A stretch of DNA of 14,166 bases from a virus. Below the pieces are notes generated by a model. It made no database searches, had not been told where the DNA came from, and worked only from the letters and a program-made list of their open reading frames with translations. Positions 1-6,897 of the stretch are shown in pieces (the first letter of the stretch is position 1; every line of letters starts with the position of its first letter). Made by a program: the position numbers and the translations under genes. The stretch lies in the UHGV virus genome UHGV-1657835; one strand, 5' to 3'.

Positions 1-171
1 TGGCGATTAAATACACCATTATCATGCCTTCAGCCACCACAACAAGGGAAGACCCTCATTTATACAGTATACATTAAAGAGACACCTTTGGTGCAAACGC
101 GTTACGTACATCAACCACCGCTGATGATTTTGTGCGCTTTGCTACTATTCATCACCAACGGATCAGCGTAA
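1..171 (+). CDS. Possible 3' end of a gene entering from upstream of the window (partial)
   Basis: Frame 1 is open from base 1 to a TAA at 169-171 (56 codons) and ends with a hydrophobic stretch (PLMILCALLLFITNGSA). It ends 23 nt before the RBS of the next gene. No start is visible in the window. Confidence 0.2.
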   Translation, partial: WRLNTPLSCLQPPQQGKTLIYTVYIKETPLVQTRYVHQPPLMILCALLLFITNGSA

Positions 172-381
172 CCTCGTTGCCAATCAGTTAATAAGGAATT
201 AGCTATGCCTAATCGCATTCCTCTCGATCCTGTATTGCCCAAAAATTTTGACTGCACTCCTAACGAGAAACGCTTTAAAGCTCAGCTGGACGCCTAGTGG
301 GACCATCCATATGGGGTTACACAACCTGACGGGAAAATTGTAGTTTATTGTCTGAATGGTGGGGCGTGGGACCGTCCATCC

Positions 382-789
382 GTGCTTTGTTTGGCAGATA
401 ACTATGATGAAGCCTGTGAACTTGCCGAAAGACAGCAGGCAAGCTGGGTAAAAACACGGTCTGAACCGACATTCATGTTTTCAAAAGAACCGCCATTTAT
501 ACTGGCGAGGATGTCGCAGCGACCGGATCATCAACAAGAAATTGTTGCTGAATTTTCCTCAAGGGATGAGATGAATCTCTTCTCATTAAAGCAGGAAGAA
601 AGGGATCGCGTCGAAGTGTCTCCAACTCTCGACCACAACCGGATGAACCTGGCCCAGCTCGCCTGGTACAGCAAAGAATTAGAGATGTCTATTGCCCGGC
701 TTGAAAACGAAAAAGCCGCTATCCAAGTCCAGCACGAAGTAGTTCTGAACCGGATTAGAGAAATGCAAAACGATAACAGGGGATTTTGA
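382..789 (+). CDS. Hypothetical protein with coiled-coil C-terminus; the frame continues upstream to ATG 205 but is broken by an in-frame TAG at 295-297
   Basis: ORF-track ORF with GTG start at 382. The same frame is open back to ATG 205, which has a good RBS (AAGGA, 194-198), with a single TAG at 295-297 in between. TGA 787-789 abuts the ATG of the next gene. Confidence 0.55.
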   Translation: MLCLADNYDEACELAERQQASWVKTRSEPTFMFSKEPPFILARMSQRPDHQQEIVAEFSSRDEMNLFSLKQEERDRVEVSPTLDHNRMNLAQLAWYSKELEMSIARLENEKAAIQVQHEVVLNRIREMQNDNRGF

Positions 790-1146
790 ATGGCTAAAAT
801 CGAGTACCATCGCGATCGCAGTAATTACCTGGAAATATACGATCATGAATCTCTTAACGATATCAACGATGCGTTATATGAATACTGTGAAAAAACGAGC
901 ATCACAGATGCACCTGATGCATTTGTCGAGCTGCCGGTATATCTCCGCGACATCTATGCAATACGAACACCGCCCGTATCGGTGATTCACATTGGCTATG
1001 TCCGCCTGTCCATCGAAGAAGATGAAGATCGTTATATCGTGCGCCACTATACATTGGACAGAAAAGAACTTCCTAATGAATGGAACATGAGTAATTTCTA
1101 CAACGGTGAATATGGCTTAAAATCCGCTAATAATTTACGGTCATAA
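790..1146 (+). CDS. Hypothetical protein (118 aa), translationally coupled to the upstream gene
   Basis: ATG 790 directly follows the upstream TGA (TGAATG), with an AGGGGA RBS 7 nt upstream. Acidic protein with no recognisable motif. Confidence 0.6.
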   Translation: MAKIEYHRDRSNYLEIYDHESLNDINDALYEYCEKTSITDAPDAFVELPVYLRDIYAIRTPPVSVIHIGYVRLSIEEDEDRYIVRHYTLDRKELPNEWNMSNFYNGEYGLKSANNLRS

Positions 1147-1272
1147 TCTATACAGGCATGTATAACAACAACGAGCCTATTAGCTGTCAACAACGTTATT
1201 TCCTCAAATAAGAAAAAGCAGAAAACAAATTGTTTAAGGTCACAAATTGTGGCCTTGATGGAGGAGGGAGGC

Positions 1273-1503
1273 TTATTGGCTATGGCTAAAAATCAAATTA
1301 GACACTTCATGTTGCTGTAGCTCATCAAGATCCGAGGCCACAAAACCTTTTCCGAAAAACTTCACAAGTAACTCACTAGCCGCATCATTGTCACCTATTA
1401 CACGAAAGTCATACGGCAACGTCGCAAGTTGACGATGTAATCCTGCTGAGAAAGTCGAATCTAACAGCGCCCAGAATTCCCACCGCAGGATAATACTCGC
1501 CTC
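1273..1503 (-). pseudogene. Possible gene remnant: protein-like open frame with no start codon
   Basis: Minus-strand frame of about 76 codons (EASIILRWEFWALLDSTFSAGLHRQLATLPYDFRVIGDNDAASELLVKFFGKGFVASDLDELQQHEVSNLIFSHSQ*) bounded by stops, with no ATG or GTG start. The composition looks protein-like, unlike the overlapping ORF-track ORFs in this region. Confidence 0.2.
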
Positions 1504-2008
1504 TTAATACTGTATATATGTTGTTACGATATGTTTTTCTGTCTCTAAAAAAAGATGTTAATAGAATGCTAACCATTGAAGGGGATAAAAATATACAATT
1601 CCAACAAACGTTATTTTTAACAATTTTTTTCTTTGCGTTGACTTTCCCGGACACCTTGTCTGACCGAAGGTGCGCGAAAGCCACTTTTTCCTTCCTGAGT
1701 TATCCACAAAGTTATGCACTTGCAAGAGGGCCATTTTCTACATATTGTGGTGGCTAACAGATGAAATGAATGTAGATTAATTGAAGATAAGGAGAAAATT
1801 TGAGATGCAATCATGACGTTAATAGATAGGGTCTGCATTACAGACCCCACCCGCATCAAGGAATTAGCCGTTCCCTGATGTTTTTCCGAAAACATGTGCC
1901 GTAAGCTCACGTTAACGACTTTCATTCACCGAATCCAACTATATAGGGGTTGGGTTTCTACGTCAACGTGAGCAAGTGCACCTTTACATTTGACAAGGAA
2001 CCACCTGA

Positions 2009-2146
2009 ATGAACGCTTTTTTTCAGTTCCTGAGTGCATTTTTAGATGCGCCTATTATTAGCCAGATTCTGGCTATTATCCTCATCATCGTTTTGATTTT
2101 GCTTTTAAGGTCAGTAAAAAATGGAATTATGCACTGGCTTACTTAA
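2009..2146 (+). CDS. Small hydrophobic membrane peptide (45 aa, one predicted TM helix)
   Basis: ATG 2009 with AAGGAA RBS 8-9 nt upstream. Translation is MNAFFQFLSAFLDAPIISQILAIILIIVLILLLRSVKNGIMHWLT. It is below the ORF-track length cutoff, convergent with the leftward operon, and followed by an 8-bp-stem hairpin (2145-2163). Confidence 0.45.
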   Translation: MNAFFQFLSAFLDAPIISQILAIILIIVLILLLRSVKNGIMHWLT

Positions 2147-2221
2147 TGTTTCAGTGAAACATTAAAATCTCCTTGATGTGGAAACAATCATTTTCTGTAT
2201 GTGCTGGTGGGCACCTGTAGT

Positions 2222-2584
2222 TCAGCTTTCGTTGGCATTTAACTTCGTCTTTGCTTTCTCCACCAGCAACTTCCAGATGCCTATTTCATTAGCAGCCGCC
2301 TTGATGGCGGCATAAAAAGCATCTTGCTGATCGTAACGCTGGATCTGTTTTTTCAGTTTTGCCTCCACCAATTTAATTTCATTACGTGCTTTCTGAAGCC
2401 GCATCACCGCCCGGTTACGTCTGTTCTTGTATAGCGTGTTAATCTCTGACAATTGCTTTAATTTACCAGCCTGACTGCGGATTATCGCCTCCCTGGCTTC
2501 TGCCGTGCGTCTCATCTTATCTCTTAAGAGTTCACCGTTTTCGATAATTCTTTCAAGGTGTTTGATGTGATCTGCAACTCTCAT
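2222..2584 (-). CDS. Hypothetical basic coiled-coil protein (120 aa); last gene of the leftward operon
   Basis: ATG 2584 overlaps the upstream stop as ATGA (plus 2581-2584). Lys/Arg-rich helical sequence. Confidence 0.7.
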   Translation of the reverse strand: MRVADHIKHLERIIENGELLRDKMRRTAEAREAIIRSQAGKLKQLSEINTLYKNRRNRAVMRLQKARNEIKLVEAKLKKQIQRYDQQDAFYAAIKAAANEIGIWKLLVEKAKTKLNANES

Positions 2585-3462
2585 ACTTCACCCTCGCTTG
2601 TATCACCAGCGTCCACCAACGACAATAAAGCCCTAGCCATCTTATGAACCAACAGTGCATCAATAATGCCAAGCGTATGCCCCGGCTTAATGTTTAATGC
2701 TGCCTCAAGATGACACCTTTCCAGACCGCTTTTCTCGGCTTGTTTATGATGATATGGCGTAATAACGTCGCCCAAAACACGGCTAATTCTTTCTCGTAAT
2801 TGCTGGGTGCCAGCACACTTGATCGCTGTATCGTGGAGACGGTTAACCAGTTCGCGATAAACATGCGGCTTAATGCGGATACGTTCACCGGTGACGCCCT
2901 TTCCTGGCGCAGGCACCGAACTATCCGGAATATCCGGATAGTTGCCAGCCAGTCTACGCAAAACAGCCTTAATTGCATCAATACGGTCATCATCAACTTT
3001 TTCTACAATATTGGAATTTAAATACTTCGAAGCCTTGCTATGCCAATCGCTGGTTTTAGGGTCTTGTCCATCCATCAAACGCCAAGCTTCAGCGATTAAC
3101 TCATAGCCAGTAACAGTGGCTTCCTGCGCATCACCAATCAGTTGTGTGATCTCTCTTTCAAGCATGCTTAGAGCGTTAGGCATTGGTTTTTCTTCCGGTA
3201 CTACTGGAACGGGGGGAGCGGCGTAGACCTCAATAATTCCATTATCAATAGGCCATTCTCCATCCTTGAGGTAGTCACTTGTGCCGTCAACTTGCTGTTC
3301 TGCAATGTGGAATGCACCTATTGGTTTTGCGTCCAGCGATGCCAGAGCAATTCGTGCCAGTTCTTCCGCTTCTTCTGCTGGCAGTACAACGTTGCTACCA
3401 GGTCCGTATGTTTCGCGCCACTGCTTGATTGTCAGTAGTCGCTCTTTGGTAATAGTGGTCAT
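2581..3462 (-). CDS. Hypothetical protein (293 aa)
   Basis: ATG 3462 with AAGGA RBS; ATGA overlap with the upstream gene (3459-3462) and the downstream gene (2581-2584). No motif recognised. Confidence 0.8.
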   Translation of the reverse strand: MTTITKERLLTIKQWRETYGPGSNVVLPAEEAEELARIALASLDAKPIGAFHIAEQQVDGTSDYLKDGEWPIDNGIIEVYAAPPVPVVPEEKPMPNALSMLEREITQLIGDAQEATVTGYELIAEAWRLMDGQDPKTSDWHSKASKYLNSNIVEKVDDDRIDAIKAVLRRLAGNYPDIPDSSVPAPGKGVTGERIRIKPHVYRELVNRLHDTAIKCAGTQQLRERISRVLGDVITPYHHKQAEKSGLERCHLEAALNIKPGHTLGIIDALLVHKMARALLSLVDAGDTSEGEV

Positions 3463-3974
3463 GCCGCGTTTCCTTCTTTCTTATTAACAATTACACCGTC
3501 ATATATTTCATTAAGGTGCCCTCTCAACTCCATGCGCCTTAATGCAGATAACATGTAATCGCATTCAACCTGCTTATTTCCAGTAAATGGCTTATCGTCA
3601 GGATTACCCCAACAGCAATTACCCTTGGGCCACCCATGTACTTTCCGTACTCTTCCGTTAACAACGTGAAGTAATCCCCAGCCAGGTGGTAAATCCTCAA
3701 TTGAAATAATTCCCGGCTCACTAATAAAGAATCGCCAGTCGCCCATTCCAAGAGACGGATTTTTACGAAAACGCTTTTTTCTATCTGCCAACAAGTCAGC
3801 ACGAGAACACTTCGCCTCTATCAGGCATGATGCTGAATTTCTGAATCCCATAGCATCTGGCTGTTCTCCGGTACTGGTTACAGCTATAAAGCGGTCATGA
3901 AAACAAACCTTGAACCCGTTGCGCTTAAGGAACTTGTACGCAATCTGACAGAGTTCGCGGTGTGTTAACGCCAT
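3459..3974 (-). CDS. Putative PD-(D/E)xK nuclease-fold protein (possibly MmcB-like); function uncertain
   Basis: ATG 3974, one nt after the upstream TGA. Contains a ...GEQPDAMGF...LIEAKCSRAD... pattern compatible with a PD-(D/E)xK motif. The family assignment is from memory. Confidence 0.7.
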   Translation of the reverse strand: MALTHRELCQIAYKFLKRNGFKVCFHDRFIAVTSTGEQPDAMGFRNSASCLIEAKCSRADLLADRKKRFRKNPSLGMGDWRFFISEPGIISIEDLPPGWGLLHVVNGRVRKVHGWPKGNCCWGNPDDKPFTGNKQVECDYMLSALRRMELRGHLNEIYDGVIVNKKEGNAA

Positions 3975-3975
3975 A

Positions 3976-4656
3976 TCACTCTCCTTTGATGCGAATGCCA
4001 GCGTCAGACATCATATGCAGATACTCAACTGTATCCTGAACCCATTGACCGCCAATCCCGTAATAGCGATGCGTAATGATGTCGATAGTTACTAACGCGT
4101 CTTGTTCGATTAACTTCCGCAGAAACTCTTCCAGGTCACCAGTGCAGTGCTTGATGACAGGAGTTTTCCCAGGATGGCGAACAACAAGAAACTGATTTCC
4201 GACTTCACGGACTTCGTTGCTTTCCAGTTCTGCTATGCGCTTACTTCCATCCGCGATTACTCCCTCGTAATATTCACGCTGCTCGTTGAGTTTTGATTTT
4301 GCTGTTTCAAGCTCAACGCGCAGCTTCCCTACCGTTAGCGCAATATCCTCGTTCTCCTGGTCGCGGCGTTTGATGTATTGCTGGTTTCTTTCCCGTTCAT
4401 CCAGTAGTGCCAGCACGGTAGCTGGACTGGCTGCTGCGATGAATTCAGCATTGGCCTGCTGTTCCATTTGGAAATCTTCATCGAAATCGCTTTCTGGATG
4501 CGCTCCTTCAATTCTGCAAATGGGAATATATCCAGCAACTTCACGATGAATTAGCGCATCATCACCATCAAATCGGCTCTCTCCATATTCGAGCGACCAT
4601 ACACCACACGTTGCTTTTTCTGCCTTTTCACGCAGTGCCTGATAGTCAATTTTCAT
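3976..4656 (-). CDS. Ead/Ea22-like protein
   Basis: N-terminal region (KIDYQALREKAEKATCGVW...NAEFIAAASPATVLALLDERER) matches the conserved Ead/Ea22 signature of enterobacterial phages as I recall it, followed by a coiled coil. I place the start at ATG 4656, which has an AAGGA RBS 8 nt upstream and an ATGA overlap with the upstream stop; the ORF track starts it at 4665. Confidence 0.8.
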   Translation of the reverse strand: MKIDYQALREKAEKATCGVWSLEYGESRFDGDDALIHREVAGYIPICRIEGAHPESDFDEDFQMEQQANAEFIAAASPATVLALLDERERNQQYIKRRDQENEDIALTVGKLRVELETAKSKLNEQREYYEGVIADGSKRIAELESNEVREVGNQFLVVRHPGKTPVIKHCTGDLEEFLRKLIEQDALVTIDIITHRYYGIGGQWVQDTVEYLHMMSDAGIRIKGE

Positions 4657-5297
4657 ACTCGCCATCCTTCACAGTTGTAATCACGACATCCTTCAAAATC
4701 ATATGGGCTGTACTGCCAGGTAATTTTTCCGCAATGCGGACAATTCCAGCGCACCTTACCGCTTCGCGACTTTTTTCTTCTGTTTTGTTTTTTCAACCAG
4801 TCAGGTATGACCAAACCTGCGCCCTGAACCATTGTTCTGCGGTTAAAATTATTGATATTGAACGTCCGGCGCTTTGCTACATCGGCAATGGAAAATGGCA
4901 ACCAAACTATTCCTGGCTCGTTTTTGTTAGCGACGCTAAAGATGGTTGCTTTACTGAAGTCATCTGTTGGCAATCCACCGTGTTGAAGCCAGTAAACATC
5001 GTTGCCGTTCCAGCTACCTTTTTTGTAGGCCACATACGCAGTGCAATCTGACTCAATCAGGCTTTCTGTGGGGATGTACTGGCAATCAACGTGCCACAGA
5101 GCCATTGCATCCACGCTATCAGCGCAAACAGGCTGATCGATATCTCGTCCACAATTCCAGGCTTTTTGGGCTTCTTCCAGCGTGTAAACATGAGCGCGAT
5201 CGATATCAGAACTGTAACCATTGCCGTTATGGCAATGGAATGAGGCGTTATTACCCACAGTTTCACGCAAGCACATCATGTAAAAGCGGTTATTCAC
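4653..5297 (-). CDS. Hypothetical protein with C-terminal Cys-rich zinc-binding motif
   Basis: GTG 5297 with GGAGG RBS 6 nt upstream. C-terminus has CPHCGK...CRDYNCEG. The start overlaps the end of the upstream gene by 8 nt. Confidence 0.75.
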   Translation of the reverse strand: MNNRFYMMCLRETVGNNASFHCHNGNGYSSDIDRAHVYTLEEAQKAWNCGRDIDQPVCADSVDAMALWHVDCQYIPTESLIESDCTAYVAYKKGSWNGNDVYWLQHGGLPTDDFSKATIFSVANKNEPGIVWLPFSIADVAKRRTFNINNFNRRTMVQGAGLVIPDWLKKQNRRKKSRSGKVRWNCPHCGKITWQYSPYDFEGCRDYNCEGWRV

Positions 5298-5550
5298 TGG
5301 TTGCCTCCGCTTCCCACGTTTTCAGACTTTCACCACAGAACGGGCAAAATGAAACTCGAATAGGCGATTTAGAAAATTCACCAGACCGCAGCATGATCAG
5401 GTCTTGTGAATGAATTAATTCATGGTTATAGATTTTGTATTTCAGCAGACCTTTTCGCGTCGTGTATTCAGCGTCATGCTCCAGGGATTGTGCCAACGCC
5501 GCGCACGGTTCTATCTTGTTGCCATTAATTTGGCATTTTGACTCACTCAC
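5290..5550 (-). CDS. Small zinc-ribbon protein
   Basis: Contains two Cys pairs (C..C near the N-terminus and CPFCGE). The ORF track starts it at TTG 5574, which has no RBS; GTG 5550 has an AGGGGG RBS 6 nt upstream and overlaps the upstream stop by 8 nt, so I prefer it. Confidence 0.65.
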   Translation of the reverse strand: MSESKCQINGNKIEPCAALAQSLEHDAEYTTRKGLLKYKIYNHELIHSQDLIMLRSGEFSKSPIRVSFCPFCGESLKTWEAEATSE

Positions 5551-6124
5551 TGGTTGCCCCCTGAATACGCTCAAACTCTATTACCCACACCCAAGGATTA
5601 GCGTTCCAACTATCTTCGCCATAAATTGATTTCCATAGGCTAGGGAAACCTGGGTAATGCTTATCGCCAATGAGGGTCGATTCTGTTGGTGCGCCCTCAG
5701 CCCTTGCATCGCATTCGCTGATATCGTTCAACCGCTCAACGCGAACGTTGGTAATTTCCAGAAGAATGCGCGATGCCCAGCGCGGCATGTGAATTGATGG
5801 CGTCCACTTTTCTGATACTGGTTTATTACAAACCTCGACCGGAACCCGGTGCGTTTGTTCTGTCCAGGAGTTACGCACGCTTGCGCGATAAACCAGCGTT
5901 GCGACGTCCGTCGCTTTGCCATGTACCCGGTAGGTTTCGCGAACCCAAATACGATCGCCCGGTTGACCATATGGACAATGCTTGGCAAGCAACTCTGCGG
6001 CCACTGCCCGTCCATAGAATTTTTCTTCAACAATCCTGCGAGTCTGTGTTTTATTCCCGCCAAGAATTGCCCGGACCATCTCATCGTTAAAAATCATGCC
6101 GCGCTCTTTCACTTCGCCTTTCAT
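5543..6124 (-). CDS. ASCH/PUA-like domain protein (phage-associated family)
   Basis: ATG 6124 with strong RBS AGGGGGA. N-terminal MIFNDEMVRAILGGNKTQTRR resembles the GxKxxExR-type ASCH motif common in prophage proteins. The domain call is from memory. Confidence 0.8.
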   Translation of the reverse strand: MKGEVKERGMIFNDEMVRAILGGNKTQTRRIVEEKFYGRAVAAELLAKHCPYGQPGDRIWVRETYRVHGKATDVATLVYRASVRNSWTEQTHRVPVEVCNKPVSEKWTPSIHMPRWASRILLEITNVRVERLNDISECDARAEGAPTESTLIGDKHYPGFPSLWKSIYGEDSWNANPWVWVIEFERIQGATSE

Positions 6125-6133
6125 GCATCCCCC

Positions 6134-6220
6134 TTACCCATGAGCGACGATGCCGCCAAAAGTGATAGAGAACTGCCAGAAATAGATCGCGGCCATAATG
6201 ATTTTGAATGCCGTGTTCAT
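6134..6220 (-). CDS. Small hydrophobic peptide (28 aa), leader gene of the operon
   Basis: ATG 6220 with AGGAG RBS 9 nt upstream. Translation is MNTAFKIIMAAIYFWQFSITFGGIVAHG. Its TAA stop sits inside the RBS of the next gene. Not in the ORF track because it is too short. Confidence 0.4.
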   Translation of the reverse strand: MNTAFKIIMAAIYFWQFSITFGGIVAHG

Positions 6221-6247
6221 ATTTTCAGCTCCTGTGATTGATTGGAT

Positions 6248-6270
6248 ACATGCCGCGCCTTGCGGCATGT
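6248..6270 (+). terminator. GC-rich hairpin followed by a T-run on the plus strand; lies in the 5' leader of the leftward operon
   Basis: CATGCCGC-gcctt-GCGGCATG (8-9 bp stem) followed on the plus strand by TTTTTATTTT. On the minus strand it is preceded by an A-run and has no U-tract after it, so it would only terminate plus-strand (antisense) transcription, or act as a leader structure. Confidence 0.35.
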
Positions 6271-6282
6271 TTTTATTTTCAC

Positions 6283-6319
6283 TTTCTCTGTTTTAAAAAT
6301 CAATATTTATTAGAGCAAT
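6283..6319 (-). promoter_or_regulatory. P1 C1-operator-like 17-mer plus a conserved A/T block; putative repressor-controlled promoter for the leftward operon
   Basis: Minus-strand ATTGCTCTAATAAATAT (plus 6303-6319) matches ATTGCTCTAATAAATTT at 16 of 17 positions. It is followed after 2 nt by ATTTTTAAAAC, the same arrangement as the copy at 8444-8460. TTGCTC could serve as a -35 with a -10-like hexamer 17 nt downstream. Confidence 0.55.
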
Positions 6320-6825
6320 TATTGTTGATGAAGAAGCGCGTTTTCATACTCCCTGACCATTAACGTAAGCACGCCGTGCCTCCTGAAAACACGCGCCACT
6401 TCAATCTTATCTTCCAGCGCGAACGCGATTTTACTTAGACCAATTTTCTTAAGGAGATCAATCTTTGCTGGGCCGTCATTTCTGTCATCGGTGGCAGGAC
6501 GCATAGATAGCAAAGGCTCAGCCCCATTTGTTACGTGCTTACGCAACCAAGCTCGTGTTTTATCCCTGGCTATCTCACAGCGCCCGGTTACAAACCAGAG
6601 CGTGTAAATGCTGGACAACTGGCGCACCATATCAATAACTGGAGTGATGGGAGCATCAGTGTCACAGGCAAGGTTAAACTCGTTCCAGTGCTCTGTTAAT
6701 GCACCTTTGCCAGGTGGTGGAAGTAAATGCAGCCTGTCTTCCGTTGCCTCTGATATTGTTCCATCAATATCAACTATGACGATATACGGACGTTCCTGGT
6801 GTGCGTGTTTATTGAAAATACTCAA
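6319..6825 (-). CDS. HAD-superfamily phosphatase, polynucleotide-kinase 3'-phosphatase-like
   Basis: HAD motif I in YIVIVDIDGTIS (DxDGT), motif II in WFVTGR, then a conserved Lys and an acidic motif (ALEDK). TTG start at 6825 with GAGGAGGG RBS. Confidence 0.8.
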   Translation of the reverse strand: MSIFNKHAHQERPYIVIVDIDGTISEATEDRLHLLPPPGKGALTEHWNEFNLACDTDAPITPVIDMVRQLSSIYTLWFVTGRCEIARDKTRAWLRKHVTNGAEPLLSMRPATDDRNDGPAKIDLLKKIGLSKIAFALEDKIEVARVFRRHGVLTLMVREYENALLHQQ

Positions 6826-6843
6826 ATGCCCTCCTCATTGGAC

Positions 6844-6877
6844 GAAAAAAATGCTGGTGGGCGCACTCCACCAGCAT
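6844..6877 (-). terminator. Rho-independent terminator for the upstream leftward operon; palindrome carries Chi on both strands
   Basis: ATGCTGGTGG-gcgcact-CCACCAGCAT (10-bp arms) followed on the minus strand by seven T. It lies between the stop of the 420-aa gene (6898) and the start of the HAD gene (6825). Confidence 0.6.
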
Positions 6878-6897
6878 TAAAAGTGACACTGTAACTG

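Follow-up and report, generated by a model that had tools for sequence, protein, structure and literature searches.

The question raised by this locus was whether a single in-frame amber codon, TAG at positions 295 to 297, marked a gene that had died or a gene that was still decoded in some way; the codon interrupted an otherwise open frame at 205 to 789 of the 14,166-nt stretch of DNA analyzed here (the window, to which all positions refer). The original prediction had left three readings side by side: a recent nonsense mutation giving a pseudogene, a suppressor-dependent amber allele as found in laboratory phage stocks, and programmed read-through. The comparisons made it very probable that the frame was a nonsense pseudogene, produced by the change G296A, of lxr/upf94.2, a dispensable accessory gene under SOS control, and that this null allele had persisted, spread among wild Escherichia coli plasmids, and gone on decaying.

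By sequence matches, positions 56 to 14111 of the window constituted a segment of a P1/P7-like phage-plasmid. Its closest match was pJIE250_3 from E. coli (99.1% identity across 56 to 14117), and further matches were found in many P1-like plasmids, Salmonella phage SJ46, and phage P7. This 14-kb P1-like stretch was bracketed by two different insertion sequences: (i) ISKox3 (ISL3 family) on the left, represented by its terminal ~56 bases (1 to 56, minus strand) and (ii) IS1 on the right, represented by a terminus with its terminal inverted repeat (14112 to 14166), which closed the segment. The sequence 1 to 58 was found in 1310 plasmid records, and in pC11-215kb and pK516_NDM1 this match was directly adjoined by the ISKox3 transposase gene; the P1/P7 relatives all parted from the window sequence to the left of ~56. 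The junction of ISKox3 with the P1-like segment, whose position was ambiguous by 1 to 2 nt, fell inside a LexA box. The full box was 20 nt long (TACTGTTCATTTATACAGTA), was annotated in P1 and P7 records at the equivalent of 50 to 69, and was common to humD and lxr in the relatives; in the window, the ISKox3 end replaced its left half-site, and the lxr side retained only the right half-site TCATTTATACAGTA (56 to 69). The humD gene, if retained, would lie beyond the window edge, and relatives with the same allele carried humD upstream.

A sigma-70 promoter scan of positions 1 to 205 gave no match upstream of the lxr homolog. In the GenBank entry for P1, the opposite strand of lxr carries a predicted sigma-70 promoter, PhumD, at a distance of several hundred bases from humD; by transfer from that entry, its equivalent would be at about 508 to 534 (minus strand) of the window, where a simple promoter scan did not recover it. 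When the 1.1-kb region 100 to 1200 was used as a query against E. coli genomes, 1018 chromosomal places matched part of it only, at high identity.

Translation of 205 to 789 bore out the predicted 195 codons with a single internal stop: the frame read MPNRIPLDPVLPKNFDCTPNEKRFKAQLDA up to the amber codon, WDHPYGVTQPDGKIVVYCLNGGAWDRPSVLCLADNY directly behind it, and NDNRGF at its very end before the terminal stop. The good ribosome binding site that had been proposed was also there, since the Shine-Dalgarno (SD) sequence AAGGA of the original gene (193 to 197, plus strand) lay 7 nt ahead of ATG205 (spacing 6 to 7 nt) and paired with the anti-SD at -6.2 kcal/mol, a value that ranked among the strongest ~5% in the window. 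The interruption divided the frame (plus strand throughout) into three parts: (i) a translatable 30-codon stub ending at the amber codon (205 to 297), evident from the ORF list and its translation and listed as a 30-aa ORF by some gene callers in related contigs; (ii) 28 codons (298 to 381) that read exactly as originally described, WDHPYGVTQPDGKIVVYCLNGGAWDRPSV, and that the alignments identified as former core codons, which would now be untranslated; and (iii) a residual ORF of 135 codons (382 to 789), confirmed to start at GTG382, which the annotation pipeline PGAP calls 'hypothetical protein' in related plasmids (WP_001354543.1 and WP_223656859.1). The open frame behind the TAG was not a product of chance: the probability of 163 open codons, calculated from the composition of the segment, was 9.2e-5, the frame stayed open in 1 of 20,000 shuffles, and the five alternative frames of the segment held 5 to 15 stops each.

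Three homologs of the frame were taken as references: lxr of P1 (190 aa; P1_gp102, YP_006568.1, 'LexA regulated function'), upf94.2 of P7 (194 aa; AAQ07574.1), and WP_181716886.1 of pJIE250_3 (194 aa). At the DNA level, 205 to 789 (plus strand) was 98 to 99% identical to upf94.2 (99%) and to the pJIE250_3 gene, while P1 lxr was colinear with it at about 90% protein identity. The P1, P7, and pJIE250_3 records each showed the gene divergent from humD across a common LexA box, and the window copy probably shared this locus and arrangement with P1 and P7. P7 additionally had the same downstream gene, upf93.6, while P1 differed in having another 3' end of lxr and hot in place of upf93.6. Compared to P1 and P7, the window displayed TAG for TGG at codon 31, Phe for Ser at codon 24, and a LexA box cut by ISKox3.

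Once the stop was repaired, the encoded protein matched PHROG 6164 (function unknown) over positions 1 to 194 of 194 (E 1.5e-133) and was 98% identical to the cluster representative P0001; no hit above threshold was obtained for the repaired protein in Pfam or NCBIfam. The intact relatives of the frame had 194 sense codons, and the window copy was interrupted once: with TAG at codon 31, it did not contain the uninterrupted frame of ~190 to 194 codons, and by sequence comparison it would be assigned as a pseudogene derived from the PHROG 6164 family instead of a functional member. PGAP calls intact homologs (e.g., WP_181716886.1) 'DNA-binding protein'; none of the Pfam and NCBIfam models scanned, and none of the structural matches found, supported this name.

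A search of 5.8 billion proteins recovered two size classes of the family: (i) ~190-aa forms in P1-like elements of Escherichia, Salmonella, and Enterobacter and (ii) ~133-aa forms in Klebsiella, Pseudomonas, Xanthomonas, Burkholderia, Bradyrhizobium, and Mesorhizobium. The ~133-aa homologs aligned to residues 1 to ~125 only and not to the C-terminal part, and the N-terminal part was therefore regarded as the core of the family. The family also included truncated or split forms of other kinds: a frameshifted form of 158 aa comprised 93 member sequences, for example, and residues 1 to 111 and 123 to 193 were matched separately by PHROGs 17145 and 10721. As for the surroundings of the short forms, Pseudomonas plasmids (L020 to L022, 5788 to 7040) carried a unit composed of a 66-aa gene, the ~133-aa lxr-like gene, and a serine resolvase gene, adjoining repA, while Klebsiella phage-plasmids (L023 to L025, 6001 to 7763) carried the ~133-aa lxr-like gene beside a HEPN-Toprim gene and replication/recombination genes.

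The lesion itself was clear from the comparison: codon 31 was TGG (Trp31) in P1, P7, pJIE250_3, and E2855 and TAG in the window, owing to G296A, and outside codon 31 the P1, P7, and pJIE250_3 genes were 97 to 100% identical to the window and colinear with it. Colinearity of homologs across the TAG had been named beforehand as the check to make, and the homologs proved to be colinear and strongly conserved there, with TGG/Trp31 at that position; homologs starting at the equivalent of 382 with no conservation of the frame ahead of it were looked for among the homologs and did not turn up. In alignments of 22 and 77 homologs, W31 and W32 were nearly invariant, as were the motifs WWDHPYG and CLNGGAWDR, and 298 to 381 encoded the nearly invariant W32, D33, P35, G43, C49 to G53, and W55 to R57. 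An intact homolog modeled by AlphaFold (pLDDT 89.5) displayed a beta-beta-beta-alpha-beta-beta-alpha core at residues ~25 to 130, with strands at 36 to 39, 45 to 50, and 58 to 64, followed by a long C-terminal helix at 149 to 192; no significant or convincing match to this model was found among the solved structures compared. Because the nearly invariant Trp31 lies inside the N-terminal core, the stop was interpreted as a nonsense mutation, G296A.

The TAG31 allele was not confined to the window. An exact 60-mer with the TAG was present in eight complete plasmid records of E. coli, which represented six strains (China, Singapore, the UK, the USA, and Japan). Another 16 complete records combined TAG31 with three additional G-to-A changes, so that the allele was carried by at least 24 of 68 copies of the P7-type gene in complete genomes. 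The exact 135-aa leftover products were recorded on 310 contigs ('B' type, see below) and 24 contigs (the type of the window); of the intact 194-aa sequences read among the members, the most frequent one was recorded on 105 contigs. All nine of the related contigs examined that encoded the window's own product had A296. The sources of TAG31 included humans, poultry, pigs, mink, deer, soil, and wastewater, as well as metagenomes, and its carriers spanned several continents and hundreds of draft contigs. The part of the original prediction that called the gene a pseudogene thus stood, while 'recent' had to be qualified, as the allele was widespread and later mutations were layered on it. The least plausible reading, in which the TAG came from faulty base calling or from the selection of an amber mutant in a laboratory stock of phage, was hardly conceivable: laboratory collections often contain amber mutants of P1 and one TAG31 carrier, MRE162, is an old laboratory strain, but the identical allele in wild isolates from many sources (humans, poultry, pigs, soil, and wastewater), in metagenomes, and in many independent complete assemblies from five countries contradicted a laboratory allele and excluded a sequencing error.

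TAG31 was confined to nearly identical P7-type alleles and was absent from the distant homologs in the alignments. Within the P7-type gene, it was present on two closely related haplotypes, 'A' (pJIE250_3-like, including the window) and 'B' (EC21Z-048-like), and intact TGG was also found on each (pJIE250_3 and E2855, respectively), so that all four combinations of A or B with TGG or TAG existed. In the full-length protein, residue 104 was Pro on the B haplotype and Ser in the window and pJIE250_3. Accordingly, WP_001354543.1 and WP_223656859.1 (135 aa, E. coli P1-like plasmids) represented the same GTG-start leftover behind the same TAG31 as in the window, but they were on the B haplotype with Pro104 instead of Ser104, and the plasmids encoding WP_223656859.1 had an additional upstream TGA at Trp55, which the window did not contain.

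As to the origin of the mutation, G296 was the fourth base of a Dcm site CCTGG (293 to 297, plus strand; now CCTAG), where it stood opposite the inner cytosine of CCAGG on the other strand. The change had the features of a Dcm-type event, namely a G:C-to-A:T transition at the inner C:G pair of CCWGG that converted CCTGG to CCTAG. Most E. coli strains carry dcm. Amber hotspots at Dcm sites were reportedly described in E. coli lacI by Coulondre, Miller, Farabaugh and Gilbert in 1978 and by Lieb in 1991. G296A shares with these hotspots the G:C-to-A:T change at the cytosine of CCWGG that Dcm would methylate and the creation of TAG; the lacI hotspots, however, were recurrent events measured experimentally, while for lxr the link would come from sequence context alone. 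In the proposed route, 5-methylcytosine on the complementary strand would be deaminated, and the resulting T:G mismatch would escape very-short-patch (Vsr) repair and be fixed as CCTAG. T:G mismatches that arise from 5-methylcytosine deamination in CCWGG are substrates of Vsr repair (PMC2715241). Given this pairing of G296 with the inner Dcm-site cytosine, deamination at this site was the most likely origin of G296A, on circumstantial grounds. The occurrence of TAG31 on two haplotypes would fit recurrence at such a hotspot, and it would fit equally well a single origin followed by recombination among the mosaic P1-like plasmids; the case for recurrence was weakened by the more divergent P1-type sequence, for which the TAG31 version had no exact match among 154 P1-type copies.

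Further damage was found in the TAG lineages. The 16 complete genomes mentioned above carried a second stop behind TAG31, Trp55 TGG to TGA (G369A), and also the missense changes V38I and E131K. In the sublineage of the window, a C-to-T change at 275 (plus strand) converted Ser24 to Phe (TCT to TTT); 275T was present only in the window and in L010, L015, and L019, all of them TAG carriers. The carriers formed a nested series, with 296A in all, 820A in a subset, and 275T in a subset of the 820A set, and Ser24Phe had therefore arisen after the TAG. TAG lineages thus accumulated further disabling mutations, with ISKox3 in the operator as an addition in this window. Among the 21 window genes compared with pJIE250_3, an internal stop was found in lxr only, and general recoding of the window, with several amber genes, was rejected. 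The HAD/PNKP-type 3'-phosphatase gene (6313 to 6825, minus strand) was three codons shorter than that of pJIE250_3, ending in LHQQ instead of LHQQKLL; it was rejected as a second lesion, as the same 168-aa form was called in related contigs and represented an allele.

Taken in order, the favored course of events would be as follows: G296A would convert Trp31 from TGG to TAG, translation from ATG205 would yield no more than 30 residues, so that the conserved N-terminal core of Lxr would not be made; the null allele would then persist, spread among wild E. coli plasmids, and decay further, by the stop at Trp55 in one sublineage, by Ser24Phe in that of the window, and by ISKox3 splitting the LexA operator in the window. 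By comparison, frame 205 to 789 was thus a pseudogene, and from this we infer that the protein is absent. Persistence would be explained by the dispensability of lxr for P1 lytic growth: when the genes of P1 were screened genome-wide by CRISPRi, lxr scored as non-essential (plating efficiencies, 0.79 and 0.77; PMC10695390). The gene lies at the edge of the variable region of P1-like plasmids (PMC9603915, PMC6906374).

The alternatives differed in what they retained of the gene. One of them accepted the loss of the full-length protein and regarded it as favored instead of neutral, Lxr being an SOS-induced protein costly to the lysogen or phage-plasmid, or else had the coiled-coil fragment from GTG382 expressed and acting alone. 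If Lxr were costly, null alleles would be driven to high frequency, and the share of TAG31 among P7-type copies and its presence on two haplotypes could be read in this way; either form of the proposal was considered unlikely.

A related reading, considered decidedly unlikely, was that of a split gene, in which translation restarted at GTG382 would give a working 135-aa protein, i.e., half of the core plus the coiled coil with a function retained or gained, or would at least feed ribosomes to upf93.6. ORF 382 to 789 was indeed open in every TAG carrier examined, identical 135-aa sequences recurred on the 310 and 24 contigs, and the later damage (S24F, V38I, and the Trp55 TGA) lay upstream of 382, with E131K alone downstream. 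This distribution, three changes in the 177 nt upstream versus one in the 408 nt downstream, had a binomial P of about 0.08 and was not significant at this low divergence (<1%), at which an intact 3' frame would be expected anyway; there may be some constraint on 382 to 789. The SD sequence of GTG382 was weak and unremarkable (-3.9 kcal/mol, equaled or bettered by ~15% of random positions). The product of this ORF did not contain the first 59 residues of the core; judged from the model, a protein starting at residue 60 would be devoid of strands 36 to 39 and 45 to 50 and of most of 58 to 64, and it would have neither WWDHPYG nor CLNGGAWDR. As for the downstream gene, the upf93.6 homolog (790 to 1146, plus strand; 118 aa) was intact, with 99% identity and no stops, and the lxr stop abutted its start as TGAATG (787 to 792). 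Because of this junction, translational coupling of lxr with upf93.6 is suggested, and the premature stop would break it, but upf93.6 possessed a strong SD of its own (AGGGGA, -6.5 kcal/mol). The 135-codon ORF was thus most likely a mere leftover open frame.

Functional read-through or suppression, in which a suppressor tRNA of host or phage or a programmed signal would decode the TAG and yield the full-length protein, was considered highly improbable. The frame was open for 163 codons past the TAG, and a suppressor may sit elsewhere, on the rest of the element or in the host, beyond the window; against this, the TAG was limited to nearly identical alleles while all other homologs had Trp, and in the 16-genome sublineage a TGA followed 24 codons on, because of which a read-through product would not be functional there. 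The 20 normal stops of window genes comprised 12 TGA, seven TAA, and one TAG, and this last gene indicated that TAG terminates here. No tRNA gene or suppressor tRNA was found within the 14,166-nt window, and RNA folding of 285 to 400 revealed no stimulatory structure after the TAG, the fold being no better than those of shuffled sequences (z = +1.4). Programmed read-through as originally put forward was contradicted on these counts; low-level read-through or weak re-initiation may occur at the TAG allele.

The TAG31 interruption of lxr was therefore a real feature with an ordinary explanation, the nonsense pseudogene being the reading kept here, and it leaves the understanding of stop-codon decoding unchanged. 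Its consequence for annotation is that the 135-aa 'hypothetical protein' (e.g., WP_001354543.1) of hundreds of E. coli P1-like plasmids would be the tail of a nonsense-mutated lxr/upf94.2, and entries of this type should be flagged as pseudogenes. The intact Lxr family is uncharacterized, and it has a confidently modeled core and a distribution over plasmids and phage-plasmids across the Proteobacteria. For the P1-like elements themselves, the spread of the null allele shows that lxr can be dispensed with in nature, which agrees with what the CRISPRi screen gave for P1.
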